DNA of 61,542 bases, filler included, from Asterionella formosa (GCA_002256025.1; 10 parts of 10 records of this genome joined end to end with filler, not necessarily neighbours in it); one strand, 5' to 3'. Shown: positions 6,071-56,585, counted from the first letter of the whole stretch. Notes: generated by a model not told the origin, from the sequence alone. Translations and numbers: made by a program.

Positions 6071-6170
6071 NNNNNNNNNNNNNNNNNNNNNNNNNNNNNN
6101 NNNNNNNNNNNNNNTTAATTAATTAANNNNNNNNNNNNNNNNNNNNNNNNNNNNNNNNNNNNNNNNNNNN
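6071..6170. other. Artificial contig spacer (N44-TTAATTAATTAA-N44); also at 12239, 18407, 24575, 30742, 36907, 43068, 49227, 55386
   Basis: Identical spacers with stops in all six frames. Flanking contig lengths never increase (about 6070, 6068, 6068, 6068, 6067, 6065, 6061, 6059, 6059, 6057). Confidence 0.97.
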
Positions 6171-6509
6171 TACCGGTAGTCCAAAAATGTATTTCTATGT
6201 ACAAGCATACGTAAATGTCACGATGACCAGAGCTTGTTTTATGTCCGAGTCGCCCTATGTACGTGGTCACTTCCTCCATTTATGGCATTAGGTTGGCAAT
6301 TTAGAAGAATATGCATATACCGGTTGACTGTGTACCTATGGACCATTCATAATTGTTATTGGATATAGTACTAAGGTAATTACCTCCCAGCTTAGTACCG
6401 GTAAGTCAGTTCACTCAAACCATACATTTGGAAACCATGATGCGAACTAATCATCATTCCATTTCTCAGCGGGGAAATCACAAGTGGCATGGGGTGTATT
6501 CCTATATTA

Positions 6510-8559
6510 GGCCATTGCTAACGGTGGACCAAAACGCAAACCAAACAGTGTTTTGGTTCCGTTAACCCTAAAATTCGATGCTATCGGGAGAGAAAAACCC
6601 AATGCAAATGCATTACGTTTAGGGGATTCTGTGCCTATTTCCCAATAAGTTACCCAAACGTGGCATTACATTTAGGTTTTTTTTCCAAAGTTACCTAAAC
6701 GTAGAATTCCATTTTGGCTACTTTGAATGTAGTCACTAGAAACCCAATTACTATCATCGTAGAATCAGTACATATAGGACGCATCATTTACCAGTATATC
6801 ATACATACATAGATACAACAATAGCTATACAGTACTCTGGTACCAGGTAGCAGCAGGGGACCACACTGTCAAGAACAACTAGAACAACAAAAACAACAAA
6901 TCATGTTGGATTTCACCACAATCAACATGTCATCAAACCCACATTTCACCAACATGGCACACATGGATTCATGTGACCATCGCCCACATAACATTGTACA
7001 ATGTCTAGATGCCAATGGTGAGGTAGAACCAGAGAAATGGTTACAGTATCTTCAGTTTTTGTCTGATTTCGGAAAAACTCTACTCATGCCCACTCCAGAA
7101 ATACAAGGTCTTAACAATGTGCCTCTACCCCCAAGAGTTAGAGCGAGAGAAAAGAACAAGGTCTGTGAATACATCAATGACGAAGGGCTAATTCAAATGA
7201 TAACTCCTGTGATGTCGAACTTGTATATACTATACATTTCCAGACCAGCATTTGAATCATTGTCATTTCAAAAGAAATTCCGCCGCAAATTTCGACTACC
7301 ACACAACCAGTTCCTCCAATTTGTTGTTGATGCTAGAGATTCAAATTGGTTTCCTCGCTGGACTCGACCTGATGCAACAGGAAGGGCTTCATCACCCCTT
7401 GAACTTATGGTTATAGGAGCATTCAATTACCTTGGGAGAGGATGGACTTTTGATGACATTGAGGAGAATACTGGTATCAGTCACGAGACCCACAGGCAAT
7501 TCTTCCATGACTATATTGAAGTTGGAAGTACCATCCTTTACAAAAAATATGCATGTTAGAACTCCAACAAACCCATTGGAAGCAGAGCACCACATGTTTG
7601 AAATGACACAGGCAGGTTTCCCTGGATGTCTTGGGTCCACAGATGCTACACATGTGTCAATAGAGCGATGCTTCAATCGGCTTTGGAACCAGCATATATC
7701 ATCAAAACTTCCTTGTACTGCCAGGACTTATAATGCTACTGTGAATCATCGCTGGAGGATCCTGTCTAGTACCACGGGGCATCCTTGTCAATGGAATGAT
7801 AAAACATTAATCAACTTTGATACTTTTGCTCGAGGCATCCAGAATGGTCAAGATGCCTTAAAAGATGTGGAGTTTGAGGTTAAATAAAAAGATCGGAATG
7901 GAGCAGCTGTATCCATAAAGTATAGTGGGTGCTTTTTGATAGTTGACAATGGATATCTAAAATGGTCTACAACAGTGCCTCCAACCTTAAACCCAGAAAC
8001 TGAGCAAGAACTTAGATGGTCTGAATGGCTGAAGTCACTTAGATAAGATGTGGAATGTACCTTTGGAATACTCAAGGGACGCTGGCGGATTTTAAAGTCA
8101 GGCATTCGAATACATGGAGAAACAGAACCTGACAAGAAGGTCTGGCTAACATGTTGCACATTTCATAACATGTTGCTTGATATTGATGGCTTAGACCTGC
8201 AATGGCAAAATGGTGTTTTATGTGACTGGGAAGGACCATTAGGCCAATTAAATGGAGCTGAAGCACCTTTTGCTATTCAAAGGCTAAATGCAGTTGCAAG
8301 ACCGGCAGTACTTGGATTAGCCAGTTTGCGAACAATTGATACCTCTGGAATGGATCCTGGTAATGATGGTGATGGACAAATTCCTGATTCAATTCGCAAT
8401 TTAGTGCCGGATCCAAATAACAACTTCAATATTGAAGTGCTAACAAAGAATGTTGATACAGTTCGAGTGGTCCGGCATTTAAGTTTACAGTTCTTCAAGA
8501 GTAAACTCATTGAACATTTTGATATTTTATGGAAACAAAATAAGATTGTTTGGCCATAA
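6510..8559 (+). mobile_element. PIF/Harbinger DNA transposon: left end plus disrupted DDE transposase (6903-8559)
   Basis: End sequence GGCCATTGCTAACGGTGGACC preceded by TTA. Transposase motifs FRRKFRL, YLGRGWTFDD, GSTDATH, IVDNGY, DVECTFGILKGRWRIL, CCTFHNMLL. Frameshift near 7550; in-frame stops at about 7885 and 8044. Confidence 0.85.
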
Positions 8560-11900: not shown

Positions 11901-13439
11901 TGGATAAGACATAAAATGCGAGAAATTTATATTTATCATTAAACACAATATAAGATGAGAACTCCAATCTTGGGATAATCTGTGCTTTTTACTTCTTTCT
12001 CGATTGCCACTTTTGACCTAAATTAATCCAATCGGTTGAGAACTAACAGTATGACCCCAGAGATTATAGTAGCTAATTGCTACTATTGCATGACACCACA
12101 GCAACAGCTTTTGTTCAAACAGCTGAGGGCATTCATGGAGCAGTACTGGTATGATTCCAAGAAAAATCTGATTGATTCAATGTAGGTTTGCATCCTGGTG
12201 GGTTACATTTGCAATTGTGTGCAAACAAAGATTTTGGANNNNNNNNNNNNNNNNNNNNNNNNNNNNNNNNNNNNNNNNNNNNTTAATTAATTAANNNNNN
12301 NNNNNNNNNNNNNNNNNNNNNNNNNNNNNNNNNNNNNNTTGTATCGTTGGTTGGAAGGAGATGAGATGAAAGGAACAAGTCAATATCAGTTGCTTTGCAC
12401 TTTTATATCTTATCATCGGTTCATTCCTCTGGAGCAGAAATGAAAAAGAAAGCAGGGAGGAAGAAGAACATTTTGATTCGAACTACCGGTACCACCGGTA
12501 CCATACCACAGGTACCGGTAGTCTACTCGTATTAACCAATCCATCAAGACACTGACGCCGGCCGGCTGTCGATGTTCCACTGGTGTGTGTCAGTATGACT
12601 TGCAACATTGGTGGTTCGGCGTGGGAGTACGAGCGGCATACAGACAAAGAAACGTACGAGGGTGTTCTCATGGCTGAGGTTCCAGACAGTGTTGCCAGTG
12701 TCAGTCAGCTTCACCCATTTTCACTGGTGGTGCTCTGCTCATGTTTATGTTGCATTTATATTTGAGTACCAGTAGTTTTTATGCTTGTAAGGCTGGTTGC
12801 ATCAAAATAATAATTATAGTAGCCCACGTAGCACTGGTACAAACTATTATCCTTATCCCTACCGTAGGAAGGAATATCGCACCAATTTGTTTGCTTCAAT
12901 TGGCTCACCATGTTGCTCAATATAACCACCGTTTCCTGTGCAAAAGTGATTCCCCAAAAGCCTATATATTTGTTTGTATAGTCATGAGTGAAATGCTTTT
13001 GGGGAATCACTTTTCACATGATATTCAAAAAAATATAGCAATATCCATTATGGCTGCCATCAGTGACCCTGCCATTCATGGTGTTTGGTTGCCGGTCGAT
13101 CTATTCAGGGAATATCTTCACAAAAAGATCTCTTTTGGCGATAATATACAATTTAATACTAATAGATTGATAAGGTATCTCAATAAGGTTTTTCCAAATC
13201 AATCTTTGGAGTCAAATGAAATTACTCTACTACATAATGCCTTTGATTCAAATAGTAAAATTAATATTACTGGTCTAGCAGGAGATGAATTAAATTCAAG
13301 GAAAAGGAGAAGACACAAGTGAACAACAAGAAGGAGAAGAAGAAGGCAAAGAAGCAACTAGTAGACTATTATTGCTAGCAGGGGGGAGTGATGAATCATC
13401 AGAACTAGCTATGAGAGATCCTACATAAATTTCACATTT

Positions 13440-23156: not shown

Positions 23157-24230
23157 TCAGATGGGTACAAATAATACCTGAGTCTGGTTCCCGAATGTCT
23201 CTCCTTCTAAAGTGTCGCGTAAACTCATTGCCGCCTCCACATCGGATTCATCATGCGGAATAACGTCTTTGCCATCTACTCGCTGAGCTGGTACAAAGAA
23301 GTTTCGACACATCGGGCATCGCTTCTTTCCCTTGCTGAGCCAGACCAAGATGCATTCAGCATGAAAAGCATGAGGACACATCCGTCGTGTCGACCACACG
23401 ACTTTGTCTCCTGATTCATAATCCATTAGGCAAATCGTGCATTCAGCATTAACTGTACGAGAATGCCCATTTTCGTCTGTGACTGGTAGACATAACTTTC
23501 TCTCTTGCAATGGGCATCGATCCGTTGGTCCTCCAAGTTCCAAGTCGACTTGGTATTCACCCTCATCCGAGCTCGAAGTTGTATCCATAGTATGGGTAGC
23601 AGAAATGGAGGGATATTTCACTGTCACTTCCTCAAAAACATCATTTGATTCCACATGGTACTCCGCTTCGTGATGCTTCTCATCATCTTCACAAGCATAC
23701 GACATTGTCGGTTCCGAGTCAACGATGTTCACAAGTTCTATCGTGTCCTGCCTGCTTTCCACATAATCAGATTGGTCGTCAGCGGTCGCTGTTTGCCTCA
23801 CTTCCTCGCCATATCGGTCGCTAACTATTTTTTCTTCTTTCGCGGATCCAAATTCGAAACTGACACTTTGAAACTGTGCATTTCTGCCATGCCCGTCATT
23901 CTCACGACTAAAATCGGCGTCAGCGACAACCATGGTGTAGGGTTTCAAAAAGACTCGATATTTCCTTGCCCTTTCTTCCCGTTGCTTTAATAATAGACTA
24001 TTGAAATCTCGCTCCAATTCCTCCTGAATTTGTCTGGCCAGTTCTTCATCGTCCAGTATTTGCTGTTGAAGCGTGGCAGGGTCCATGACTCGAGGTTCGA
24101 CTTGACCCACTGCTGCATTTCCTTTAAACATGCGATTGATATGATCCTGGAAATAGCAACAACCAGCAACAATGATTAGAAAAACACCAAGAATGATGGA
24201 AAGGACGTAAGGACCTTCCAAGCTTGACAT
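23157..24230 (-). CDS. Transmembrane RING-H2 E3 ubiquitin ligase (ATL-like architecture)
   Basis: First ATG at 24230. TM segment YVLSIILGVFLIIVAGCCYF. RING-H2 CTICLMDYESGDKVVWSTRRMCPHAFHAECILVWLSKGKKRCPMCR. Confidence 0.88.
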   Translation of the reverse strand: MSSLEGPYVLSIILGVFLIIVAGCCYFQDHINRMFKGNAAVGQVEPRVMDPATLQQQILDDEELARQIQEELERDFNSLLLKQREERARKYRVFLKPYTMVVADADFSRENDGHGRNAQFQSVSFEFGSAKEEKIVSDRYGEEVRQTATADDQSDYVESRQDTIELVNIVDSEPTMSYACEDDEKHHEAEYHVESNDVFEEVTVKYPSISATHTMDTTSSSDEGEYQVDLELGGPTDRCPLQERKLCLPVTDENGHSRTVNAECTICLMDYESGDKVVWSTRRMCPHAFHAECILVWLSKGKKRCPMCRNFFVPAQRVDGKDVIPHDESDVEAAMSLRDTLEGETFGNQTQVLFVPI

Positions 24231-25480
24231 GGCGTAATTATCGATAAGTTCAGAATGAAATTTGTGTCCAAACTTTGTTTTCAGAAAACAACGCACCTGG
24301 AAGAAAAGGAGAGCGAACTACCGGTATGTACCAGTAAGTGTATTCATGTACGACCTAGGCACTTGTACGGTACCAGGTAGACTGTTGTTTGCCAGGTGCT
24401 ACGGATCCGGGTTTTCGTCATATCACCCGAAGGAAAGAGCGATGCGAACAGTAAATTAGCCAGTATATCCGGTAGCTAACTTATGGTACATTTAGGAACA
24501 AGTCGGAACCAAAGTCAAACAATGATGCTCAGGCACTTCCCAGCGGTATGTACTCTAATGGAGCATACTATACCNNNNNNNNNNNNNNNNNNNNNNNNNN
24601 NNNNNNNNNNNNNNNNNNTTAATTAATTAANNNNNNNNNNNNNNNNNNNNNNNNNNNNNNNNNNNNNNNNNNNNGGGACTGCCTCTCTCTGATGGTTGAA
24701 AACAGTCGCAGCGATTCTTGATTTCGACTCCTTCGATTTTCTCCGGCTCAGTTGCCCTACATATTGTACGCCTCCTGCCTTGCCGAAAGGCAAGACACAC
24801 CCAAGATGGTAAGAAAACATACGAGGGTACCCTGGTGTCAGAGTGTGTCTGATAGGCTGTTGATGTCGACAGGTGTCCGAAAGCTATTGAGGAATGTCTA
24901 AAAATGGAAATAGGCAGGATTTATAAAGCAAAATAATATGCAGACGAGTCGGTTTGACAAAGATCTTGACCGGTCATTCCAGGGCAGCACTGGAATTCGC
25001 AAGAAGAGGCACCATATATTTCAACAACCTGGTACCTGCAAGTTGTGGTCATTTTGCCGAAAATGAAATTAGGTGCCGGCAGGCTCTCAAGCTCGATTCC
25101 AACAGTAATAATATTACCTCGACATTTAGAAAATTTCTAATGGTTTTGCACTGGCCCATTCATTTCAATTATATCAAAATCAAATTTTGAAGAATGATTT
25201 TCTGAAAAACCAGGTTTCCGCATTGGAGAAAATTAGAGAGTAGGAAACCCCCATCTCGCTCGAGGAGGCAGTTTTCGGAAAGCAAGCAAGAAGAGTACTT
25301 ATTTGTCGATGAGAACCGTTTCTCTATGCCTCCGAAATTGGCGTTGCTCTTAGCCTACTGGTGTTGCTGATGATTAGTAGTGGCTGCCAACATTTTTCGG
25401 AAAATCTGTTTTTTTAGTAGCTAATGAAGCAACAATCAAATATGTCAGGACCTACAAAGAATATTGGTGGCTCCCATCTT

Positions 25481-30841: not shown

Positions 30842-33800
30842 GTGGCGAATGACAACGACAAGTTGACAGTCACAAAGGAGGGGTATGTCAGTGGAAAATT
30901 TGAAACACATCAAGCAACTATCACGGAGATACCAGATCGATCCTTTCATTCAAATAGCATTACACCTGGGACACCATTTTTCGCGACGTGTCAGGAGCAT
31001 TTGGAACACTTTATCAAATACAAAATATCGACAGATCCGAGATGGCAATCTCTTACTATCATTTTTAGTGGAAGTCATGTTCCTGGTGAAGGAGAGCACA
31101 AAATTATGGATTTTATGAGACGAGAGCGAGCTAGACCAGATTATGATGCAAACATACGACATTGCATTGTGGGCCAAGATGGAGATTTGATCATGTTGGG
31201 ACTGGCCACCCATGAACCGAATCTGGTATTGTTAAGAGAACGAGTTGTATTTGACATGATGAAAAAAGCCAACGAAAGGGGCATTGAGTCTTATGTCTTT
31301 AATCCGCATTTTGAGTTTTTACACATTAACGTGTTGAGAGACTACTTGGCCTTTGAATTTGAAACTGCTCCGCTAACAGCCAATAGCACATGGGATCATG
31401 AGAGAACAATTGATGACTTTGTCTTTTTGACATTTTTTTGTGGGAATGACTTTTTGCCTCATTTGCCCGCCGTCGACATTGGGGACGAAGCCTTTGAATT
31501 GCTGTTTTACACCTACAAGCGCTGTCGAAGAGAGTGGGAGCAGAAATCTCGGAAGAATCCTTATTTGACCAATCGAGGGAATATTTGTTCTGGGGCCAGG
31601 TTAGAACATTTCTTGCAGGTCTTGGGATCACATGAATCTCCTTATTATGATAATAAAAAGGAGCATACGACACGAAGCAATAATAAGATTCGTAATAGCG
31701 ATTCTAATGCAGGGCGAGAGTCCTTGATTCCACCGGAGGAGGTCTTGCAATCCAAAGAAGAAGAGGATCGAGCTTCCTATCGAGAAATGTTGGCCAATTC
31801 GAACCTAACAAGTGAAATGAGTGGCTTTACCCCAGTCCTATCGGAACAGGATTTTCCATCCTTTCAAGCATCGGGAGTAGACGAAGAAATGGAAGAAGGT
31901 TTCTTTGCCAAACTCGGAAAAATGGTGCAATCATCGTTGACGCCGAGTGTTGAGACTAACGGCATTCCCGGTATCAACATGGCATATGAATCCCTCGACG
32001 ATCAAGACTTGAAGGGTCGGTACTACTATGATAAGTTCAGATTTACCCCCTTTGATGCCGAAAAGCATATTGCGCTCAGAAAGGCTTACTTGGAAGGGTT
32101 GGTGTGGAATTTGAAGTACTACTATGAAGGGTGCGTTTCATGGGAGTGGTATTATCCGTATCATTATGGTCCAATGTTGTCCGACATTGTCAATATTGAT
32201 CAGATGTTGTCCGATATTTCTTTCAATGGCAAGTTGGGAGAACCCCTCAAACCATTTGAACAGCTCTTGGGATGCATGCCACCGTCTTCGGCCTATATGT
32301 TGCCCGAACCGTATCGTTGGCTCATGACGGAAGAGAACTCGCCCATTCATGAATTCTATCCTCTCACTTTTACGGTTGATATGAACGGAAAGAGATGGCC
32401 ATGGGAAGCCGTTGTCTTGTTACCCTTTATAGACTCAAAAAAGTTATGTAATGCGGCCAGAAATTTTGTCAAGGATAGTCAGTTGACTCCCGATGAACTG
32501 AAACGAAACACATTGGGCCACGCAGTCGTTTTTTCACACGATGCTTCTGTCAAGGAACAAGTTCCTCAGTTGCGAGCAGGGATGAATTGTTTTGAAGTAA
32601 TTAACGAATGTTCTTGCAAGAGTGTTCCTCTTGAAGGAACAATATGGGATTACCGCCCACCAACAGCAACTGTCTTTGAGCCTACTCTTAAGGATGGAGT
32701 TGTTTGTCCACAAGCAGGATTTTCCACTTTGAAAGTTGTACCTATCACTAATCTTTGGAAACGTCGTGTTGGATTAAATGTTTTTGGCATGCGATCACGG
32801 TATCGAACAGCTGTCCTTCAGCTGAGAGAAGATTTCGCACCCCCATCGCCGCCCATTGAGAATCTTGCCGCGAAATTGATTGGAGTCGATGTCCATATTA
32901 ATTACCCCCACTTTTTGGAAGGGTACGTCACATCTGTGTCGAATGAAGAAATGTCGATTCGAGGGAACGAGGCTCCTCAGGTCTGGTCAGAACGAGAGCG
33001 CAATGATTGGATTCAGCGGTGTAATTTGTTGACGAGCCGATTGGAATATGGTGAAGGATACAGTGGTACTGGTGGATGGAACGTGCCTTCAAGCAAAATT
33101 ATATTTTCAGTGAGGCCCTTGAAGGAGATCCTCACACTTGAAGACGGAATGAAAGTTAAGTCATACGCCAAGTTTGAAGTCGAAGTCCCCTTGGTTGCTG
33201 TTTCATGGTCACCTGCACAACTAGATCCTCGACTTGCCAATTTTCCTAGACGACTTGAAAAGGATCTGTTCTTTGTAAACAAGACAAAGCGAAAGGCAGC
33301 ACTAGACCTATTTAGTCCTGCATCGTCCGACAATTTGGATGTGTTGCCGTCTGATCTCTTGCCCGATTCGGATAAGGCCTTTGATGGGCCCATCATTACG
33401 AGTTTGTCCGATTTCTTTGTATCTGGTGAACACACACATGAATCTTTGCTGCCGCCTATGGAAATTTCCGGTGCCCTCTCTTCTAGCCTTGACAGTGGCA
33501 GGCGTTCACTTCTTCCACCCTTAGACATGAAGGCCTCGCTTGGCGGGAGTGGATCTTCACGAACGTTTTCCACTAGAAACACGCCTCAGCCATTCTTCAC
33601 CAAAGGAAACAGGCGTTCCTTTTCCACAATGAAAAGCATCCGGTCATCTAGTGGCACACCACGTGGCCGAATGTTGACCATGGTAGGAGCTGTTGCCATG
33701 TTTGCTTCTAGCATGGCAGTTGCCAATGCCACAGGATTGAGCCTGCACGGCAGTCTACTCCAACAAACCTCCTTGCTTTCCATTCATGGTGGTGACTTAG

Positions 33801-34489
33801 CCTCCCCGTTCCACTCTCCAACACCTCCTCCCCTTGAGTTTGCTCACGGTACCACAACACTCTCGTTCGTCTTTCAAGGAGGAATTATCGCTGCCGTCGA
33901 TTCTCGTGCATCACTTGGCAATTTCGTCGGTTCCAAGACTGTGCAAAAGGTTCTGAGCATCAATACGCACATGTTGGGGACTATGGCGGGCGGGGCCGCG
34001 GATTGCTCGTTTTGGATTCGAAAGATTAAAGCCCAATCTTCACTTTTGGAGCTAGTCTCAAACAAGCGCATGAGTGTAGCGCGAGCATCTCGCATCTTGT
34101 CGAATGCGTTATACGAAAATCGTGGTTTGGATTTGTCCGTGGGTACTATGATTATGGGTCAAGATGAAAACGGTCAGTTTTCTATTTACTATGTCGATAA
34201 TTCCGGTGTCCGCATCAAGGGCGAATTGTTTTCATGTGGATCTGGTTCAACCTTTGCTTTGGCAATTTTGGATCAAGAACGAAAATTTGACATGACGGAA
34301 GAGGAGGCGATCGCCTTGGGTATCAAGGCAATTCGACACGCGACCTTTCGGGATGCCTATTCTGGTGGCTTTATTGGAGTGTACTTGATAACCAAGGATG
34401 GATGGCGCAAGGTTTTTAGTGAGGATCTGGCTTTGTCTGGTGGGGATTCGAAACACAAGGAGGAGACGGTTGCCATTGTCGAGAGTTGA
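30842..34489 (+). CDS. 5'-truncated XRN1-type 5'-3' exoribonuclease fused in frame to proteasome subunit beta5 (PSMB5/Pre2-like)
   Basis: XRN motifs SNSITPGT, VPGEGEHKIMDF, GQDGDLIMLGLATHEP, DDFVFLTFFCGNDFLPHLP, WNLKYYYEGCVSWEWYYPYHYGP, PFEQLL, DMNGKRWPWEAVVLLPFID. Beta5 domain from 33851: HG|TTTLSF...AVDSRAS...VQKV...GTMAGGAADC...CGSG...RDAYSGG. No stop or gap between them. The N-terminus is lost at the contig edge. Confidence 0.9.
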   Translation: MANDNDKLTVTKEGYVSGKFETHQATITEIPDRSFHSNSITPGTPFFATCQEHLEHFIKYKISTDPRWQSLTIIFSGSHVPGEGEHKIMDFMRRERARPDYDANIRHCIVGQDGDLIMLGLATHEPNLVLLRERVVFDMMKKANERGIESYVFNPHFEFLHINVLRDYLAFEFETAPLTANSTWDHERTIDDFVFLTFFCGNDFLPHLPAVDIGDEAFELLFYTYKRCRREWEQKSRKNPYLTNRGNICSGARLEHFLQVLGSHESPYYDNKKEHTTRSNNKIRNSDSNAGRESLIPPEEVLQSKEEEDRASYREMLANSNLTSEMSGFTPVLSEQDFPSFQASGVDEEMEEGFFAKLGKMVQSSLTPSVETNGIPGINMAYESLDDQDLKGRYYYDKFRFTPFDAEKHIALRKAYLEGLVWNLKYYYEGCVSWEWYYPYHYGPMLSDIVNIDQMLSDISFNGKLGEPLKPFEQLLGCMPPSSAYMLPEPYRWLMTEENSPIHEFYPLTFTVDMNGKRWPWEAVVLLPFIDSKKLCNAARNFVKDSQLTPDELKRNTLGHAVVFSHDASVKEQVPQLRAGMNCFEVINECSCKSVPLEGTIWDYRPPTATVFEPTLKDGVVCPQAGFSTLKVVPITNLWKRRVGLNVFGMRSRYRTAVLQLREDFAPPSPPIENLAAKLIGVDVHINYPHFLEGYVTSVSNEEMSIRGNEAPQVWSERERNDWIQRCNLLTSRLEYGEGYSGTGGWNVPSSKIIFSVRPLKEILTLEDGMKVKSYAKFEVEVPLVAVSWSPAQLDPRLANFPRRLEKDLFFVNKTKRKAALDLFSPASSDNLDVLPSDLLPDSDKAFDGPIITSLSDFFVSGEHTHESLLPPMEISGALSSSLDSGRRSLLPPLDMKASLGGSGSSRTFSTRNTPQPFFTKGNRRSFSTMKSIRSSSGTPRGRMLTMVGAVAMFASSMAVANATGLSLHGSLLQQTSLLSIHGGDLASPFHSPTPPPLEFAHGTTTLSFVFQGGIIAAVDSRASLGNFVGSKTVQKVLSINTHMLGTMAGGAADCSFWIRKIKAQSSLLELVSNKRMSVARASRILSNALYENRGLDLSVGTMIMGQDENGQFSIYYVDNSGVRIKGELFSCGSGSTFALAILDQERKFDMTEEEAIALGIKAIRHATFRDAYSGGFIGVYLITKDGWRKVFSEDLALSGGDSKHKEETVAIVES

Positions 34490-34642
34490 TCGAGGAAACA
34501 CATGCAACGTGACCGATGGTACTATCATTCAAGAATAAAACTACTTAGGACGAGCCGCTTGAAGGAAGCTATTGATTCTATATACAATTCAATCAAGGTA
34601 CAACGAGCATTTCCCCACTCTCCCACAATATTATAGTAGATA

Positions 34643-35296
34643 CTAAATGTTCAACAACAAATTTGGCTGTTTTGGCTGAATCAATTCTTTGGGTACCAAC
34701 TCAAATACATCGTTGCGATGATCCGCCAAAAAATCTCTTATAAGTTCCATAATGGACCGCAAGGATCGATCTCCCTCTGCCATTTTTGCTCTAAAGTTTG
34801 TTTCGTTGAGTTTTACTCCAGGCAGCGCCTTAAGTCCAAGTATCAAGGCTTCCAATTCGTTGGAAGTCATGGCGAAATCTCCATTGTGATCTGACGTGAC
34901 CACAACCCTCATGATGGTTTGAAGCAGATTTTGCTGAATGATCTTTGTCATTTTGTTTGTCAGAACAGATTGTTCTCTAACCATGTTCCGTAGAGCTCGC
35001 AGTTGCGTTGGCCCAGTATTGCAGTACTGTCCCAATTCTTGCTCGACGCGATGCAATTGATCGACTTTGGAATCCATTCGATTTAATGTCCGATGCAACC
35101 GCTCTTGCTCGACATGGCAATAATTCAATTCGTGTCTCAATTCATTTGCAATTTGTCTCAAGTTTTGGCTATTAATTTTTCTTGATTGTACTGCCAAAAA
35201 GAGACCAAAGAAAATAGTAAACATGGATGCAATTCGAACAAGAAGCGAATCATAATACAAGTACATGGATAGGAGAGAGGATGCTATAGCAGTCAT
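34643..35296 (-). CDS. Hypothetical membrane protein with coiled coil and an EF-hand-like loop; true start may lie upstream
   Basis: 217-aa ORF with two hydrophobic N-terminal segments, a heptad-rich middle and a DHNGDFAMTSNE loop. Convergent with the XRN-beta5 gene. Confidence 0.6.
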   Translation of the reverse strand: MTAIASSLLSMYLYYDSLLVRIASMFTIFFGLFLAVQSRKINSQNLRQIANELRHELNYCHVEQERLHRTLNRMDSKVDQLHRVEQELGQYCNTGPTQLRALRNMVREQSVLTNKMTKIIQQNLLQTIMRVVVTSDHNGDFAMTSNELEALILGLKALPGVKLNETNFRAKMAEGDRSLRSIMELIRDFLADHRNDVFELVPKELIQPKQPNLLLNI

Positions 35297-36099
35297 GGCA
35301 AGTACATCGTGCGACGTACATCGTCGTCGTGCATTCTTGTCCTTTGACTTGTTAGTCCTGTTCCTAGCCGAATCATTGCTATCGATGGAATGCGATGCAG
35401 CTGCCTTGGCAACTCGTGCTCGCCAGCGAAGGGATGTCGTGTCCCTGGAGAATAGTGGGAGGAGTGTGTGTGCGAGTGTGTTTAGTAAGGCATGTGAATG
35501 TGAGAAAGGGGGAGGGAGGCAGGGAGGGACTTACATGATTCCATGAAATCCATTGAGAAAGGACGAACAATTGTATTCCTCAGCACGACATCAATAAAAT
35601 ACGGGTAAGTTCCAAGGGTACCGTACCTGGTACCAGGTAACATACGATAGCACTCCGGGGCTCGGTTAGTAATTGCTGGCCGTATGAATAGCACTACCGG
35701 TAGTGCAGTAAGCATTAGCATTCTTTATTGCTGCATGTCGTGCGTCTGTACCGCCATCAATTGATTATGGTAGCTAACCAAGCAAACCTACCGGTAGACT
35801 TCATACTTACCATACATGCACACTTCGTCTCAAGTGGTATTGCGAATTCCAAAAAACCGCAAGTTCCAACTGAGAGTAAATTCCTGAGATCTGCCAAACC
35901 TTACTGCACACCAACCCTGATATCTGCTTGAATTTTCAATGATATACTAAACAAAGCTTGGATATCCTTTCCATCAGGATGCTACTGTAATGTATATCCA
36001 TAATTTAGCACTAACATTTTTGGATGACTCAGCTAAGCTGAACAAGATCAACAGCCCAACAACATTTTACTGGAAAGGCAAACAATCACAAGACAAGAA

Positions 36100-39299: not shown

Positions 39300-40760
39300 A
39301 TATTATAAGTATAAACATGCTAGCTAACACAAATAACAAACGCGTATCATGCACAGAAAAATTCTGTGCCAGTCATCGTACGATACCCCTGATCTTATAT
39401 GTACAATACTTTTTATTTGCAGACGTATCTATCAATGACACTTTATTCATACCGCAGTATACATCAACATGTATTGATATTTTAGAGGAAAGGGTGAAGA
39501 GATTTATGTCAGTTACTAAGATAATGATTGGTCCCCAACGGGAAATGATATCTCAAATTGGCTTGTTATGAATGGCAAAATTTCATGGAATGAAACCTTA
39601 CACTCATCTGATTAGGAAGTTCGGATCTCCTCTTAATTTCTTTGGTGGATAGCAATTTGGAGTCTTTTTTGAAAAGACAAATTGAAACGAGCGACTCAGT
39701 AAGCGTGTCAATGGACAATTACATCGATTAAAGCATGACATTTTAACAAGGTCATATGAAACAAGGCAGTTTGCCTTGGCACGAAAAATTGTTTTTGTAA
39801 GTGATTCATTACATACAGAAAACAAACAAAAGAAGATGAGTAGAGAAAATAGCATCAATGTAACTGAGGGTATTTCAACAGAAATTGATTTCGAAGGAAT
39901 GATTCCGGATACAATGATGTTGCCTAGCTAGTACGTCGCCTGATAATTTGGGAAAGTTGCCTACTACCAAGATCCATTCACCAGCCAGATCTTCCTGTTA
40001 AAGTTCAATTTTCTGCTTCATCATCAAATGGTCTATAGACTATAGCAGGTGTCCCTAATAAGATTGGGCATGCTGTATCACGGAGTAAGTATGCACCCTT
40101 GTCTCAATTGGTTCATCCTGATTTACCGAAGGGGGCCGACTACGTAAAGAGCATTGCGAATTCAGCAACAGAAATAGCAAGAATCAAAAGTCTTGAAGAT
40201 GGGGTTGGGCCTGTTTCCATTGTAAGGATTGACTTTTATTATCATGTTAAAATTGAAAGTAACGTTCCCGGCCAAACTACTATTTTCAGATGCCATCCGA
40301 AATGGAATATTGATTCAAAGGCAGGAATCTCTGGTCGTGAATGGTTTGACTGGGTCGAAGTGAACTGGGAGAAGGGAGATGGATCAAGTTTCAACACAGT
40401 TCTGGCAAAACTACCCACTTCTTTGGGGAAATGTTATTTTCTCCAACTCAACAACAACCATTCTCTTAGCGTGTATTCGTTCCTTGAAAAGTTCAACTGA
40501 AATGAAATGAAAATTCATAAACGTATGTTTTTTGCAAGAGGAGACACCTTATGCAATGATACAACTGAATTGAGCGTTTTTGAATTTCATAATATACTTT
40601 CGGCAGCATTTGTTGTTCCTGCTTTGAAACCACAGGAATCAAGGAAATCTCTGAAACCGCAAGAAGCAAGTTTTGGAACAGATACGGAAAGATAATTTTT
40701 ATGTTGCCATGACTCCACGTAATTTATGGAAATCAATCGGGTGGGACCAAAAACTAACAA
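39300..40760 (+). mobile_element. Decayed CACTA/Plavaka-like transposase C-terminal region
   Basis: KFHGMKPYTHLIRKFGSPLNFFGG and FRCHPKW...WFDWVEVNW motifs, broken by stops. A reverse-complement homolog lies at about 59990-60850. Confidence 0.5.
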
Positions 40761-41747: not shown

Positions 41748-43067
41748 GGGTCGTTCTTATCATTTTCGATTTGGTATCATTTTTTTTGAAAAAGTATCAT
41801 GTAACGGCTACTCGACTTAAACCGAAAAGATCCATTCTCCACAAAAATAAAAATGAAATTGTATCACCAAAAAGTATCACGAAAATTCAACGGTTACGGG
41901 CTGGCTACAATCATGTGCATATCCCTCCAGGCTTCCCTCCAGACTATTTCGATAATTTTCCAATACTAAAACCATGTAGGAAAACTACGCGTATTATGTA
42001 GCAGTATGGAATATATAGCTGACATACCTGCTTAATTCTTGATTTGCCATGAGTCAACACAGACATGCAAGATCGTCTATACACTTCTTCTTACACTTCC
42101 GCTTGCCATCATCCCCTTTCAGGTTTACAAGCAATCAGCACCATGTCATCATTGTCAGTGCACAATGACGAACAAGTGGATCAACATTGGACTGAAGAAG
42201 GTGCCGTGAATATCAACGATGGAAATGATGATGATGGCAATGATGTCATCAGTAATCAATTTTTTGATAATGACAACAACCATCAATTCTTTGATTACGA
42301 TGACCATGATCAATTCTTTATCCTTTGTCATCTGGCTCTGGAGGCTGAAACGAAAGTTAAAAAGAGGAAGGCGAAATGGGAGCATGAGAGAATGTCATGG
42401 CATTCTCATGTCAAGAAGCTGTGTCATGAGGACGCATTTGAAAAGACTTATAGAATGTCCCTTCGAGCCTTTAAGAAGTTGGTTTACTTGCTGGAGAGTG
42501 ATGTCATTGGGAATTTCTCCAAGTGCGGTACAGCTACTCCCATTTACCCAGAAATTGAGCTGGCCATTGGCATTCGATGGTTGGCTGGAGGCAGCTACAT
42601 AGACATTCGTCATGCCTATGGATGTAGCATAGCTTCAATCTATAGATGCCGAGATTTATTTCTTGAAGCCGTGCTTAACTTTGATTATCTGAAAATTATA
42701 TTTCCTAAAATCAGGAGTGATTTGGTGAAATTGGCTATAGCCTTTGAACAAAAGAGCACAGAAGGGTTGATCAGAGGGTGTGTTGGTGCTATTGATGGTT
42801 TGTTAGCCAGAATTAGTCGCCCCACGCTACGTGACTGTGGAAACAATCCAGGAGCTTTTTATTCTGGACATTACATGACTTATGGTATCAATGTTCAGGC
42901 TATCTGTGATGTTGAGAATAGATTTATATTTTTTGGGGTGATTGCTCCTGGACGATGCAGTGATCAAGTTGCATTTGAGAGAACTGCTCTACCCAACAAA
43001 ACTGCATTATTTGATTCTGGTTTTTATCTTGTTGGTGATGCAGCATATACATTGTCAGATGTCACGT
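41748..43067 (+). mobile_element. PIF/Harbinger transposon: left TIR and DDE_Tnp_4 (HARBI1-like) transposase, cut by the contig end
   Basis: TAA target followed by TIR GGGTCGTTCTTATCATT. Intact ORF with FEKTYRMS, IRWLAGGSYIDI, GCVGAIDG, YGINVQAICD, YLVGDAAY. Confidence 0.9.
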
Positions 43068-45431: not shown

Positions 45432-48400
45432 CCCAGATAGCAGCAGACCTCGGTTACCCTGTGCTAGCCTATTGCGACTGCCCTGGGTTTTTTGACAACA
45501 GAGGCCCTGAGATCAACATTGCAAATGCAGTCAACATCAAGCTTGCTTTGCAAGAAGCCAAGTGCATGAAGGTGCTAATTCTGATCAGCTTCAAAAGCCT
45601 TGAAGCCGACCGTGGCCGCGGTCTTGCAGACATGCTGACCCTTGACTAGATCAAATAATCTCTTTTATTTCAATCAGATTTCCTTTCAGCCCACCACACA
45701 CCGCTTATCTCCTATTCTCAGCTCAGAGTTGTGTCATCAACGACTTGGTCATCCTGGCATGCATCAACTTCGCCATCTTCCACATTGCAGCACAGGCCTG
45801 CCTTCCTTTGGATCTCCATCACCTTATACACCCTCTCCATCATTGTCCCATCTGCAGTCAAGCACATGCCCGCCGTAACACCATGGGCCACACCACTTCT
45901 GTTGCTGATCTCCTTCCTGGCTCCCGCTTTCATTTGGATTTTGGTTTCATGCGTGCCAGTTCTCAATCTTTCCAGAAACAAGTCAGTGCTCCCCGTATTG
46001 TGCATTCATATGATGGCTATAATTCCTATCTCTTAATCACTCATGCTAAAACCCGTTTTACATGGGTATTCTTAACTGCTACCAAATCTCCTCCAGTTGA
46101 TATTGTTCACAAATTCCTAACTACTTTTGGTCTTCGTGATGGCTACCGTGCTCTCCGTGTCGATCAAGGCGGTGAACTATGGCGATCTGATGCCTTGCGC
46201 ACCGTTACTTCCACAGCTGGTTATATTATGGAACCCACTGGCAGTGACAGTCCACATCAAAATGGGAAAGTTGAACGCCTCAATGGCACATTTGGTGTCA
46301 TGGTCCGCTCTCTTCTCTATTCTGCTGGCCTTCCCCCAGCATACTGGAGTGCTGCACTTGTTCATGCTGTCTACCTTAAGAATCGCCTCTGGCACTCTTC
46401 GCTTCAGTGTACTCCTTTTGAATCCTGGAATGGTTCCCCACCTGATCTATCCCACTTACGTGTTTTTGGCTCCCTTATCACAGCACGTATTCCTGGTGCT
46501 CGCCCTGCTAAGCTGGATCGGCATACCTATGATGGCATTTTTCTTGGGTACTCTGGTTCTGATAAAAATGTTCTATATATTGACATTCATTCCGGTCGTA
46601 TCAAGATTGGTAGCAGCTTCACTTTTGATGAAGCCCACTTTACCTCTTCCAAACGCCCTCCTGGGCCTCAATTTCTCTTTGACCTTGGTCTCCACCAATC
46701 TACTATCCTGGAGCCCCATACTGAGCAATTGTCCACAACCATTCCTGCTGCTGCCCCTGAACCACCCTTTCCTATGTGTGCACCTATGATTCCTCCACTC
46801 CATGCATGTGCTTTTCCCCTAACCTTTGGTGAAAACTTCACACCTCCTCCTTCCAATGCCTTCCTTCTCCTGGTGATCATCCTACAATTGCTGCCGCTGC
46901 TGCCCTTTCTGCTCCAGAAGTAATGTCGATTGAATTGTCTGGGAATCCTTTTGGCCCTAGCTTTGTTGAATCTATTCCGATCACAGGTACACATATCACA
47001 GCTGGCCTGGAAGTTCAATTTGATCCCATTCGTGGATGCCTTTACTTGATATCCTGCACCCCTGGTACACCCGCTGCCCGCATCAGTCACTGGCGCTCTC
47101 GTCTTCGCTTTGCTTATATCTTATCTGTAAATGATGTTCCTGTTTCCACCATTACTGATCTGGTCTCTGCCATTGCTCATGCGCGTACTACTTCTCCCCA
47201 GCCATGCCTCAACCTGCAACATCTCTTTTACCTTTGATGACATCCACAACACTCTTTCAGCTCAGGGTCTCCCTCAATTATATTTTGACCAACTTCGAGA
47301 TATACGTAAAATTCAACACAGCTTGCACAAGGATTTTTCTGTCCCTAAAGCCAGTCGCTTAACTCGAAAGGGCCTTCAAACCCAACCTGACTGGTTGGAA
47401 TGGCTTGCTGCTGAGTTCCACCAATTAGATCAATATGCCCAGCAGGATATGTTTGGTGATCCTTGCCCTCCTCCTCTTGATGCTTCCATCTTTCATTGGG
47501 TATGGATATACAAAATCAAGGAAGAAGAACAAAACCGAAAAAAGGCTAGGGCTGTTTGTGATGGCTCTACTCGTGGGGGACAAGCTCAAGTTCATGGTCC
47601 CACATATGCACCCACCCCTGACATGACGGATATGCGTCTCTTCTTTGCACTTGCTGCTCTTGAGAACAAATTGGTCTTTGGTGCTGACGTTTCCAATGCC
47701 TTTGCTGAAGCCACTGCCCCTGAACAGGTGTATTACATGCGTGTTGATCCCCAATACCGTGAGTGGTGGGCTAGTAAAGGTCATCCACCCATTCCAGTCG
47801 GTTATGTCATTCCAATAAGAAAGAACTTACAAGGTCATCCTGAAGCTCCTCGCCAATGGTCCCGCCACATTGATACCATCTTGCAGGAATACAATTTTGT
47901 CCACACAGTTCATGCTCCTTGCCTCTACCGTGCTACAATATACAATGAAAATGTACTATTCCTTCGACAAACTGATGACTTTGCCATTGCAACCAATGAC
48001 TTGCTACTTTATACCCACATCTGTGATGCCATTGATAGCAAACTCCTTGTTCCCATGAAACGACAGGGTTTACTAACTCATTACAACGGTGTTGATATCA
48101 ATCAAACTAGCAATTTCATCACTATCCACTGTGGTACATACATCCGCAAACTCCTCCAGAATCATGCTTGGATGGACATGAAACCATCTAAACTTCCCAT
48201 GCCTGCTGACAATAACCATATCAAAGCCCTTGACACCATCTTGTGCCCTACCACAGAGGCTGAACATCTGGCACTGGAAACAAGCTATTTTCGATATCGG
48301 GGAGCCATTGGTGAACTCATATGGGCCATGATTACCTGTCGTCCTGAACTCAGTTTTCCTGTTGTTAAATTGAGTCAATTCTCCACCCACCCTGCTGCCC

Positions 48401-49226
48401 TTCACTATCAGGCAGTCAAACGTGTCTTCAAATATCTTGCTGGCACTCTGGACCATGGTCTCACATACTGGCGCCCTTCATCTCATCCTGAACTCCCTAG
48501 CATCTTTCCCCCTTCTCGGCTTGCCAAACCAGCTGATCAACACCTCCATCATGATGTCTCTGATGCCAGTGAACGCTATTCCCCTTTTTCTGTTTTTGGC
48601 TATGTTGACTCTGATTGGGCTACTGACATACGGCACCGGCGATCAATCTCTGGCATTGTTTTTAAACTTGCTGGTGCTGCCATTTCCTGGAAATGCCGTG
48701 TGCAACCCACTATTTCGTTGAGTTCCACAGAAGCCGAATTTTTGGCTGCTAGTGATGCTGGAAAAATGGCCCTTTACCTCCGATCAATCCTTGATGAACT
48801 CCATGTTCCCCAGACATTTGCTACCCTCCTCTATGAAGATAATCGTGGTGCCTTGCTTATGGCCCATGCTGGTCAACCCACTAAGCAATCTCGTCATATT
48901 GATATATGACATTATGCTCTCACTGACTGGGTTGAGCGCGATCTGGTTGCTCTTGAAGATGTTGCATCTGGTCTCAATGCCGCAGATGCCATCACGAAAC
49001 AAACTGGTGGAATTCTTTTTGCCTGGCATCTTGACAATATCACTGGGCGTCTCACCCCACTGTATGTCTCATCTGTCACACTTGCTTCTTCCCTCAAACC
49101 TGCCCTTTGAGCGAGGGGGGGTGTCAGTGTGGTTTACAGCTGAACCGTCTGTCCTACCTACCTACAGTAGAATAATATATCACGTAGTCATAATTTTGCA
49201 TTTCATCTTTTGATATTGCATTCACA
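45432..49226 (+). mobile_element. 5'-truncated Ty1/Copia element (IN, PDZ-like insert, RT, RH), PPT at 49109-49121, 3' LTR from 49122
   Basis: LCHQRLGHPG...CPIC. Integrase FHLDFGF, RVDQGGEL, QNGKVERLN. RT RKKARAV, ADVSNAF, LQGHPEAPRQW, RQTDD, CRPEL. RNase H YVDSDWA, SSTEAEF, YEDNRGA, RHIDI. GAGCGAGGGGGGG then TGTCAG. Frameshifts near 45800, 46850 and 47220; stop at 48907. Confidence 0.93.
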
Positions 49227-53841: not shown

Positions 53842-54796
53842 GGTCGATGCGCTGCTAAAGACTACCAGGTACCGGAATCGTACTGATTAGATGTAAGTCC
53901 ACCGGATAATAATAAAAGCTTTCATTCCTGCGATTTCTCATGTTATGCATCTCCCAACTGTTACATGTATACGGACAGCATGCATGGTATGTGGGATGCT
54001 GACGGGTACCTGGTAGAACCTACCTCTACCTGGTAATTTTGGATGATGATTCCGGTCAGCTATTCCCGCTCCAGCCTATATTGTCTTGCCATTCAGGTAA
54101 TAATTCTAAGTAATTTTTAGGCTATAAGTAATTTGTATTTAGGGGCAATATCGGGCACATCGGATTATTCGGCAATATGGCTGGGTGCACGAAGACTTAA
54201 GTTTGGGTAGCCATAGTCCAGCTGGTATGTTATTTTTTAGCTTTCTTCTGTTGGATGCAGACTCTATCAAGTCATTATACTTGCTTCGTTCCCACCAACA
54301 ATGGTGGTGAATGTCTCTCTCCAGATCTACTACAAACATATGCATCTTTTTGATAAGTGTTTAATAAAGCAAACCGGCCAGCTTGTAGTTCCAATTTATA
54401 TTTAGCTTTAATCTGGTTTAATCTAAAATATTGAGACCACTCAGCTTTGCTTATTCTGCCATTTGCATCCATTGGTTTTGGTTAACGTTGGAACATTTTG
54501 CCTATAGTAGGAGCATTCTTGCTTAAGGTTGCGGCCCTCGGCTTAACCCTAGTTTGGATAAAACATCGCTAGGGTTGTAAAAAGGCATGGAACAGGGAGT
54601 TTGCTGCTATGAGTTCCCATGATTCGAGTGTCCATTTGAATATTTGAATTAAATAGGACTCGGCACCAGATAGACAGAGTTCCATTTTAAACAAACAAAA
54701 ATGATATTTAAACGTTTATACTATACCTACGTTGCTGAATGTAGACATAATTTTGTTGAACGCCATAACACATATATAAATCAGGAGTATGCCTAA

Positions 54797-55190
54797 GGCC
54801 GTTGCTAATGGTGGACCAAAACGCAAACCAAACAGTGTTTTGGTTTCAGTAACCCTAAAAAACGATGCCATCAGGAGTGAAAAACCCAACGCAAACGCAT
54901 TACGTTTAGGGGATTCCGTGCCCATATCCCAATAAAATACCCAAACGCATTACGTTTAGGTTTTTTTTTCCCAAAGTTACCTAAACGTAGGATTCCATGT
55001 TGACTACTTTGAATGTAGTCACTAGAAACCCAATTATTATCGTCGTAGAATCACTACATATAGGACGGAGCATACCGGTATATATCATATCTATATATAC
55101 AACAATAGCTATACGGTAGTACCGGTACTCTGGTACCAGGTACCAGGGTACCATACCACACTGGCGAGAACAACAACAACAACAACAACA
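54797..55190 (+). mobile_element. Second copy of the left end of the 6510 Harbinger family
   Basis: About 390 nt colinear with 6510-6900. Similarity starts exactly at GGCC after a TAA target trinucleotide. Confidence 0.88.
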
Positions 55191-56585
55191 AATCGAAGTC
55201 GATTCATTATGCGGAACACATAAATCAATCTTCTGTCACCACAACTTCATCCTCGTCGTCCTCTTCAACTGAGGCTGCTGGTGGCAGTATCGCTCCGGCA
55301 ACTGGGACTGGTGCATCGCCACATCCCATTGTATCAATATATCTGGTAAGTAAGCAGTAGATGATCGCATCGCCAATTCGTTTGTNNNNNNNNNNNNNNN
55401 NNNNNNNNNNNNNNNNNNNNNNNNNNNNNTTAATTAATTAANNNNNNNNNNNNNNNNNNNNNNNNNNNNNNNNNNNNNNNNNNNNACCTTGGGTCTTTTG
55501 ACGTTGCACTCAGACATACTAACAAATAGCTATACTGTATGGTACCACCAGGTACTCCTGGCTGGTAGGTACCAGGTCATCGTTACAAGTGTGAGACTGT
55601 AGGTTTGCCCTACCAGTATTTCCGTCTTTCCCTTCCTGTTACAATAGGAATTATTTCGTTTGTACTGAGAAACTGTACTCATTTCTACGTGCATACTGTG
55701 GAACTGTAAGTTTGCACTACCAGCATTGCTTCCCATATTCCCCTTATTACAATAGAATATGGCGTTCGTACTGTGAATATATTAAGAGTAAACACTGGCT
55801 GTGTCCTCTCCTTCTTGTCACACCGATATTTGTTCCCCTAAGCGTTTTGACGCTTCTCATTTTTCCAAGAGCTACCAGTAGTGCCCTACGACATAAATTT
55901 CATAGAATGACATCCGTTTGTGCACAGCTGCTCAAATCATGAGAAAATGAAAGACCAAAATATGCTTTCAGGAATCAGGATTAATTTATCTTAAAAATTT
56001 GCTCAAATGATCCTATACACATGAGGATATTCAGTTTTTTGCTGCACTATTGTTATACCACTGACTTGCAGGTACAAGAATTGACACAAAACAAATTGAA
56101 AAAATTCAACAGTTCGTGGAAAACTATGAACTCATCATGCATTGTATATATTTGAATTGTGTATAATCAAAATTGATGTTAGTATACACAGGATACACAG
56201 GATGTGCCACATAATGATCGTGTTTAAAACTATGCAAATGTTCAACTGTATATACATTTAAACTTACAAATCTTTCTATTTATGTATTCATGGCTGAATT
56301 ATTTGAAATCATGTTTTCATGTTCCTTGTCGCGCGTACACTCTGCTCCTGAAATGAAGGATCATCACACATCATGACGCGGAAAACGAAAGTGATAATAC
56401 AACACAATGATGAGTGACTACTGAGAAGAGCGGCGTCAATTGATGGTAATTCAAGAGCAAATGCCTTTCATATTCTTGTCATGCATAGTAAACTTCCTGA
56501 AATGAAGGATCTCAAGCAACAAATCCTGCGAAAAACTGAAGTGACAATACAACAAAATGATACACCGCCCATGCGGCTAAGAAGG

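Follow-up and report, generated by a model that had tools for sequence, protein, structure and literature searches.

Structures of the 5'-3' exoribonuclease Xrn1 share a conserved acidic active site of seven Asp or Glu residues, and ordinary Xrn1 proteins end in a long disordered tail that is followed by their own stop codon. Canonical precursors of the proteasome subunit beta5 (PSMB5/Pre2/PBE) are proteins of 260-290 amino acids (aa) that begin with a non-hydrophobic propeptide of 55-75 aa. In the 61,542-nucleotide (nt) stretch of DNA from the diatom Asterionella formosa that was analyzed here (the window), these two enzymes are encoded by one frame. Comparison among relatives shows a single-frame gene for an Xrn1-type exoribonuclease and a beta5 subunit predicted to be catalytically intact, conserved across diatoms. 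In contrast to canonical beta5, the pro-region of the fused protein carries a signal-like hydrophobic segment and has a whole Xrn1 ahead of it.

Another described system close to this gene is the 20S proteasome of the diatom periplastidal compartment. The available part of the report on Phaeodactylum lists periplastid-targeted alpha2, two alpha7, beta2, beta3, beta6, and beta7 subunits and no 19S cap (Moog et al. 2011, PMC3101018), and beta5 is not listed in that part (PMC3101018). As described there, candidates were first drawn from proteins predicted to have an N-terminal signal peptide, and the presence of such a peptide on a protein that functions only in the cytosol was regarded as a mark of periplastid targeting (PMC3101018). 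The transit-peptide-like stretch had to start with neither an aromatic residue nor Leu, and a further criterion was that the genome encodes another copy of the essential protein for the host cytosol (PMC3101018). The available text of a later article likewise states that diatom periplastid 20S proteasomes lost the 19S cap (Cavalier-Smith 2017, PMC5756292). With beta5 absent from the set as given in the available part of the Phaeodactylum report, the beta5 of the fused gene would fill a gap.

A conserved single frame for Xrn1 and beta5

The fused frame (30842-34489, plus strand) comprises 1215 codons and a stop codon, has no internal stop, and is the longest open reading frame (ORF) of the window, the runner-up encoding 965 aa. 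One contig (30842..36906) holds it entirely, and both translation and contig bounds thus bear out the stop-free frame reported in a preliminary description of this DNA. The frame opens on the first base of the contig, and therefore the contig lacks about 140 N-terminal XRN residues, among them the first two catalytic Asp motifs; translation does not begin at the leading GTG. Most of the missing N-terminus is supplied by a near-identical protein of 1357 aa (P0002) from JGI, ENA, and Logan assemblies, and the window protein is present at >99% identity in all three.

Relatives were sought with the beta5 part in a collection of 5.8 billion proteins, considering only proteins of 668-2127 aa. This search gave 183 matches, and in all 120 of those listed XRN_M, XRN1_D1, and Proteasome domains occur together. 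Every named fused match among those listed is a diatom, with a range from raphid pennates to Corethron that includes Cylindrotheca, Conticribra, Thalassiosira, Detonula, Skeletonema, Fistulifera, Nitzschia, Mayamaea, and Seminavis; cluster look-up added Ditylum and Pseudo-nitzschia. The shared frame is kept across more than 100 clusters that differ from each other by more than 10%. Four fused proteins (P0029, P0038, P0047, and P0050) also have an N-terminal SAP domain (PF02037), accompanied in two by PF13297; these come either from an additional fusion or from a gene upstream that ORF calling joined on.

The preliminary description had XRN1 and beta5 joined in frame, and four Pfam domains (XRN_N, XRN_M, XRN1_D1, and Proteasome) agree with this assignment. 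The XRN_N match covers residues 28-133 of the frame and profile positions 135-240 of 241, and includes the acidic motifs PGEGEHK and GQDGDLIML. The XRN_M part includes GNDFLP and WEWYYPYHYGP, and the D1 region aligns to residues 510-809 of yeast Xrn1. P0002 additionally has LYIDMNG and MAIDGVAPRAK, and the acidic motifs align to yeast Xrn1 (6q8y). N-terminal XRN motifs are found in 61 of 121 fused proteins (the window's own counted), the others being cut at their 5' ends; GEGEHK is held by these 61, and the other acidic motifs by 43 to 59 of them. The best solved relatives are yeast and Kluyveromyces Xrn1 (E 1e-122 to 1e-123). Rat1/Xrn2 matches nearly as well (E 2e-116), and Xrn1 orthology thus rests mainly on the D1 domain. 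The XRN half passes the sequence tests for an Xrn1-type 5'-3' exoribonuclease, and the alignment of its acidic motifs to yeast Xrn1 makes it appear catalytically active.

The Proteasome domain occupies residues 1002-1182 of the fused frame. Alignment to the mature yeast and human beta5 chains places residue 1004 (nt 33851) at their position 1, which corroborates the Thr1 assigned earlier along with the catalytic residues and the GSG and RDAYSGG motifs. T1, D17, R19, A20, V31, K33, M45, G47, and A49 are all found in the window beta5, with GSGS from mature position 130 and RDAYSGG from position 167. Seven of these residues (T1, D17, R19, A20, K33, G47, and A49) are invariant in 121/121 fused proteins. 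When the C-terminal 279 residues were compared with solved structures, beta5 chains of mammals, plants, and yeast were matched at E ~1e-64; the first 47 of the 60 solved relatives listed are all beta5, and beta5i (beta type-8) appears from E ~3e-58. An AlphaFold model of the last 319 residues gives a confident beta-sandwich for beta5, with a predicted local distance difference test score (pLDDT) of 90-98. The beta5 half passes the sequence tests for the beta5 family and, like the XRN half, looks catalytically active.

Eight fused diatom ORFs (P0401, P0406, P0418, P0425, P0428, P0432, P0441, and P0442) end alike inside beta5, just after QKVLPIN. This shared end suggests a conserved intron at that point in those lineages. 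The window gene is uninterrupted there.

The preliminary description had allowed that transcripts might fail to span the linker, that XRN transcripts might be spliced before beta5, and that orthologues might be separated by stops. At the DNA level, the fused architecture occurs in chromosome-scale diatom assemblies, on contigs of up to 2.58 Mb. A scan of metagenome contigs returned 80 loci. Upstream DNA is included in 14 diatom-type loci, and 13 of these have XRN immediately ahead of beta5; XRN was found in none of the other 64 loci. The fused locus is usually one frame (1551 aa in L004, 1772 aa in L007, 1605 aa in L012, and at least 1308 aa in L006). L001 and L005 have a frame change between XRN and beta5, and L002 has one in-frame stop within XRN, which could be introns or sequencing errors. 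In a library clustered at 50% identity, the HGTTT start of beta5 is present in 37 of 50 representatives at >=45% identity, the 13 others comprising one protein of 1195 aa and otherwise fragments of 359-821 aa; it is present in none of the 16 representatives below 45% identity, and no beta5 was seen on these.

At the RNA level, fused ORFs occur in culture transcriptomes, several of them poly(A), of Ditylum, Detonula, Skeletonema, Corethron, and Pseudo-nitzschia. The fused frame is covered by contigs of four RNA runs, each from a different study, and no splice joint is seen in any of them. Single RNA contigs from two studies bridge the linker: X8 (32595-35360) and X19 (32529-34201). In X6, two RNA contigs abut at 33524, and X17 has no contig over 33586-33703; these stretches, and the region beyond 35510 where there is little RNA cover, are counted as no evidence. 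RNA depth in X8 is ~1060 but past 35510 it is 0-7, a drop that speaks against carry-over of DNA. Among the strain variants listed within the fused frame, 27 of 34 are synonymous, with 70 further variants beyond those listed. None of the three possibilities named above therefore applies: the linker is bridged by RNA contigs, no splicing is seen, and most orthologues form one frame. Thus, the two-domain architecture that the preliminary description proposed to seek in other diatoms recurs in all 120 listed relatives and in both DNA and RNA, and it is virtually certain that the fusion is real and conserved.

The linker segment and its stand-alone counterparts

The preliminary description placed a low-complexity linker of about 190 aa between the two enzymes. 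A linker does exist, but the distance from D1 to Thr1 is about 225 aa and includes a conserved basic and hydrophobic element (residues 934-961) as well as PPLEFAHG. AlphaFold gives the linker from 33530 a pLDDT below 50 and no secondary structure. In the model of the last 319 residues, the hydrophobic segment is an isolated helix (pLDDT ~54) amid the disordered linker, a predicted feature that neither supports nor refutes a membrane role.

In the window protein, the segment reads RSSSGTPRGR-MLTMVGAVAMFASSMAVA-NA/TG (nt 33641-33730), where the slash marks a putative signal-peptidase site. This heuristically placed site, A-N-A/T, falls between 33730 and 33731 and leaves Thr at +1. The uncharged run is 18 residues long, and its best 17-residue Kyte-Doolittle mean is 1.84. 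A basic and hydrophobic segment is present in 121/121 fused proteins, 51-108 residues upstream of Thr1. Over the 10 residues before the hydrophobic run, the n-region charge is +2 to +5 in all 121, often as RGR or PRQR; the uncharged run spans 15-28 residues (median 18), and small residues come next. The best 17-residue hydrophobicity of the fused pro-regions has a median of 1.85 (range 1.08-2.42); ordinary beta5 propeptides (n = 54) have a median of 0.56 (range -0.68 to 1.53), and the tails of 16 unfused Xrn1 proteins a value of 1.08.

A Ser-rich stretch, an acidic stretch, and the near-invariant PPLEFAHG follow the hydrophobic segment in that order. The post-segment stretch is 13.9% Ser and often carries (L/V/I)RGG(D/E), with [RK]GG in 72 of the 121 fused proteins. 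At the end of the pro-region, G-1 and H-2 are each present in 121/121, F-4 in 112/121, and P-8 in 114/121. A basic, hydrophobic, small-residue segment with a Ser/Thr-rich stretch behind it is the layout of a diatom bipartite targeting signal. Counting small-residue cleavage sites past the hydrophobic run was tried and dropped, as such sites are frequent by chance in sequence rich in Ala, Ser, and Gly. Two XRN fragments (P0421 and P0447) end at or just after the hydrophobic segment (...AAALFAP and ...LSQSAP); an intron, a contig end, or an Xrn1 left with a hydrophobic tail after gene fission could account for these ends.

Shorter proteins at 60-78% identity are of the diatom type, and where their pro-regions are complete they hold the hydrophobic segment. 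The beta5 proteins of other eukaryotes, at <=60% identity, have ordinary propeptides of 55-70 aa counted from Met. In stand-alone members of the diatom-type clade (Thalassionema, Leptocylindrus, and others), the protein begins with Met, a basic residue, a hydrophobic run, and a V-x-A/S-type site. The Thalassionema start, from transcriptome and metagenome ORFs of two species, is MKALANNLIYISLLLACDCSLVQA/SSS, and the Leptocylindrus start is M...MILSLVLYASILLTSSA/DSS. The putative cleavage sites of these forms are VQA/S, VEA/S, and SSA/D, all of them guesses. On a 24.6-kb contig with a Leptocylindrus-type stand-alone gene (L015), no XRN was found within 6 kb on either side. Its upstream neighbor, on the opposite strand, encodes a protein with a weak VTT-domain match, and downstream of the stand-alone beta5 lies a gene (7548-8456, plus strand) with Sel1 repeats and an F-box-like motif. 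Some short forms are simply truncated, such as P0177, which falls in a 90%-identity cluster with a Pseudo-nitzschia protein of 1288 aa.

A maximum-likelihood tree was built from 78 mature beta5 domains. Fused and stand-alone diatom-type beta5 form one clade with support of 100/100 and a stem of 0.88 changes per site, compared with 0.05-0.14 for the other deep branches, and the stand-alone forms are nested at several places within it. There was no sign of a red-algal outgroup among the named canonical beta5 matches, which are a mix of eukaryotes. In the finished tree, the red-algal sequence does not group as sister of the diatom clade, and the sister position of P0202 in a quick tree was not kept. 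A search for a canonical diatom beta5 with P0220, itself a canonical beta5, returned relatives in Paulinella, Lapot, and Ploeotia and no diatom name, a result that is uninformative on presence or absence; the P0220 clade is probably rhizarian. The protein atlas returned only generic animal and plant beta5 clusters.

Proposed separation at the internal signal and its alternatives

The signal-like segment, the stand-alone forms that begin with it, the long stem of the clade, and the published periplastid subunits together point to a targeted beta5 paralogue that would be separated from Xrn1 at the segment. It is proposed that the diatom-type beta5 clade is a targeted periplastid paralogue and not the housekeeping subunit, and that in most diatoms its targeting signal became internal by fusion behind XRN1. 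That an internal bipartite targeting signal separates a cytosolic Xrn1 from a periplastid beta5 is the favored reading of the sequence data, held at about even odds. The complete scheme, in which a polyprotein made from one mRNA is split by the internal signal into a membrane-anchored cytosolic Xrn1 and an imported, autolytically matured periplastid beta5, is put forward tentatively, as somewhat less likely than not.

In the course of events proposed for the favored reading, the Xrn1 part would be translated and would fold in the cytosol. When the hydrophobic segment emerges, the ribosome would be taken to the endoplasmic reticulum around the plastid and would engage the translocon, and the C-terminal part would then be translocated and cut off by signal peptidase. 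The pro-beta5 so produced would enter the periplastidal compartment, join the capless periplastid 20S proteasome, and mature there by the usual Gly-1/Thr1 autolysis. Xrn1 would be left facing the cytosol, with the hydrophobic segment as its membrane tether unless it is released later. Because the two products would come apart at the signal segment, the fusion might be tolerated or even useful.

Several points weigh against this proposal. The screen that defined the periplastid subunits relied on N-terminal signal peptides, and the segment is internal in 121/121 fused proteins; it lies ~1085 residues from the N-terminus of P0002 and so fails the N-terminal criterion that defines such signals. 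The case for a signal is built on plain counts of hydrophobicity and charge. The stretch behind the segment is rich in Ser, but with a median net charge of 0 among the 121 fused proteins it is only weakly transit-peptide-like. In its similarity to the beta5 of animals, plants, and yeast, the beta5 domain matches what an ordinary orthologue would show, and the window beta5 is 49-60% identical to named non-diatom beta5 proteins. The model also requires a second, canonical diatom beta5, and the incompleteness of the published periplastid subunit set makes a working periplastid 20S particle uncertain. Finally, the X8 contig continues into the convergent downstream gene, and a bridging contig of this type is therefore no proof of a single transcript.

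The same similarity to ordinary beta5 suits a different account, in which Xrn1 and the linker are a giant propeptide on the housekeeping beta5, freed by Gly-1/Thr1 autolysis or by trimming when the 20S particle is assembled in the cytosol. RNA decay and proteolysis would then be made in fixed 1:1 amounts, and the hydrophobic segment would have some other role, such as assembly at the endoplasmic reticulum. The invariance of G-1, T1, and all the catalytic residues in 121/121 fused proteins speaks for this account, as does the strong match to solved beta5 chains (E ~1e-64), which is normal for an orthologue. The distance of 51-108 residues from the segment to Thr1 also resembles the propeptides of yeast (75 aa) and human (59 aa) beta5. 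No canonical diatom beta5 turned up, as would be expected if the fused gene were the housekeeping one, but this absence is uninformative because the listing ends at 248 bits, close to the score to be expected of such a protein.

Segments with basic, hydrophobic, and small-residue parts direct nascent chains to the endoplasmic reticulum, and the conserved segment of this layout would be expected to do so here, contrary to what a cytosolic propeptide calls for. A cytosolic subunit is likewise difficult to square with stand-alone relatives that have the segment at their N-terminus. Given how proteasomes are known to assemble, a folded domain of 1100 aa should have to be removed before two half-proteasomes could join. 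Furthermore, a stem as long as that of the clade is more readily expected of a paralogue that has diverged than of an essential subunit with one gene copy. The preliminary description had an entire exoribonuclease in the propeptide position and allowed for its release on proteasome maturation; given the signal-like segment, the stand-alone forms, and the stem of 0.88, the idea that it sits on the housekeeping beta5 and is freed by Gly-1/Thr1 autolysis is unsupported as stated, and the giant propeptide is considered unlikely, although it is the main rival.

Less probable is separate expression, in which the linker contains a promoter or start site that yields a short beta5 mRNA for a protein with an N-terminal signal, and the long frame is a tolerated read-through of XRN1. 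A Met does lie within 5 residues of the hydrophobic run in 31/121 fused proteins, including that of the window (Met at 33671 and 33631), short transcripts scored as complete start near the segment (P0128, P0172, and P0189), and contigs cannot show where transcripts start. However, in 50/121 more than 40 residues separate the hydrophobic run from the closest Met ahead of it, which means that an N-terminal signal made from an internal start is not conserved. XRN1 is without a stop codon of its own, so that no XRN1 can be translated without continuing into beta5, and the more than 100 clusters described above all preserve this common frame. Some short forms also share 90%-identity clusters with long fused members, as in the case of P0177. 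An independent internal start therefore cannot be the general rule, and this account of the gene is improbable. An artifact (misassembly, a chimeric contig, or neighboring genes that share a frame by chance) might be suspected because the window consists of short contigs of a fragmented assembly and the X6 contigs abut and the X17 contigs leave a gap in the linker, but the >99% identical protein in three assemblies, the same architecture in 120/120 listed relatives, in chromosome-scale assemblies, and in 13 metagenome loci, and the conserved linker motifs refute it as far as sequence data can, leaving it a negligible probability.

Division of the polyprotein at the internal signal, if true, would have several consequences. 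The gene would supply the catalytic beta5 that is lacking in the reported capless periplastid 20S proteasome, and protein turnover within the relic cytoplasm of the endosymbiont would be linked to mRNA decay at the plastid surface. Two enzymes parted by an internal signal sequence would be a rarity among cellular genes, and Xrn1 would be predicted to be anchored at the endoplasmic reticulum surrounding the plastid. Targeted proteins that lie behind a fusion partner would, moreover, escape screens based on N-terminal signals. If the fused gene is instead the only beta5, diatom proteasome assembly must cope with a folded propeptide of 1100 residues, which would be equally unexpected. In either case, an expressed gene found throughout the clade combines a catalytic proteasome subunit with the principal nuclease of cytoplasmic mRNA decay.

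Window features and comparison with known systems

The window is composed of 10 unrelated contigs, each of ~6.06 kb, joined by N44-TTAATTAATTAA-N44 spacers. The spacers are located at 6071-6170, 12239-12338, and so on, with a period of ~6.16 kb, and contain stops in all six frames; window features that cross them are not real. The parts of the fused gene and the other annotated features are collected in Table 1.

Table 1. Positions of the fused gene's parts and of other features in the window
Feature	Position	Strand	Basis or remark
XRN_N, C-terminal half only, cut by contig start	30842..31240	+	Pfam PF03159, E 1.5e-42
XRN_M (Xrn1 helical domain)	31391..32557	+	PF17846, residues 184-572, E 3.1e-90; PDB alignment
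XRN1_D1 (Xrn1-specific D1)	32711..33175	+	PF18332, residues 624-778, E 6.8e-15
Xrn1 distal segment, then variable Ser/Pro/Leu-rich linker	33176..33640	+	Translation; variable among relatives
Basic n-region RSSSGTPRGR, residues 934-943, net charge +3	33641..33670	+	
Hydrophobic run MLTMVGAVAMFASSMAVA (residues 944-961) and c-region N-A	33671..33730	+	
Ser/Thr/Leu-rich and acidic stretch; candidate transit-peptide-like part, rest of beta5 pro-region	33731..33826	+	
PPLEFAHG, conserved pro-region end including Gly-1	33827..33850	+	
Mature proteasome beta5, 212 aa from Thr1	33851..34486	+	Pfam PF00227, E 3.8e-42
Stop codon of the fused frame	34487..34489	+	Translation
Convergent ORF downstream of the fused gene	34643-35296	-	217 aa; 295 aa stop to stop
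ORF for PhyH-type dioxygenase	543-2198	+	
ORF for protein with Shugoshin C-terminal motif	2666-4993	-	
ORF for RING-finger protein	23160-24317	-	
DDE_Tnp_4 transposase ORF	42053-43067	+	Cut by contig end
Ty1/copia-type retroelement	45646-48909	+	SH3_retrovirus E 2e-14, RVT_2 E 1e-20

The 3' end of the convergent ORF is 153 bases from the stop of the fused gene. Its product has a hydrophobic N-terminal segment and a coiled-coil-like remainder, and matches no Pfam family at the cut-off (CENP-F_leu_zip, E 0.007); RNA contigs cover it. The retroelement and the transposase ORF lie on two different contigs, and the dioxygenase, Shugoshin-motif, and RING-finger ORFs are likewise outside the contig of the fused gene. 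Short repeats with 85-94% identity are shared between contigs (6509-6902 with 54796-55194, and 39344-39787 with 60251-60841), and these are probably dispersed repeats.

With regard to known systems, the window protein resembles Xrn1/Pacman in its XRN_N, XRN_M, and Xrn1-specific D1 domains and in the conserved acidic catalytic motifs. It resembles canonical beta5 in fold, in Thr1, Asp17, Lys33, and Gly-1, in the S1-pocket residues A20, M45, and A49, and in a pro-region ending in xPPxEFAHG, which is also found in many other eukaryotes. A parallel for the proposed separation is offered by flavivirus polyproteins, in which a hydrophobic signal within the chain enters the membrane of the endoplasmic reticulum, and the cytosolic part ahead of it is split by signal peptidase from the lumenal part behind it. 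The logic proposed for the fused gene is the same, although the flavivirus case is viral and the cleavage here is putative. We know of no conserved cellular gene that joins two unrelated housekeeping-type enzymes via an internal signal.

A full-text search, with subscription journals and supplements outside its scope, found no published description of an XRN1-beta5 fusion, and the available parts of four articles (PMC3143110, PMC5862402, PMC7445176, and PMC12412216) do not mention one. Databases annotate the combination automatically, for example as "5'-3' exonuclease/20S proteasome alpha/beta subunit". As described in the available part of the Phaeodactylum report, periplastid 20S subunits are cytosolic-type subunits with a signal peptide and a transit-peptide-like stretch (PMC3101018), and the stand-alone diatom-type beta5 proteins have the same layout. 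The signals of those subunits are N-terminal and their localization was established, in the same part of that report, by fluorescent fusions (PMC3101018), whereas the segment of the fused gene is internal and known from sequence alone. Gene fusions and periplastid-targeted proteasome subunits are kinds already known, and an internal signal that divides one polyprotein between two compartments, if real, would be an unusual mechanism.

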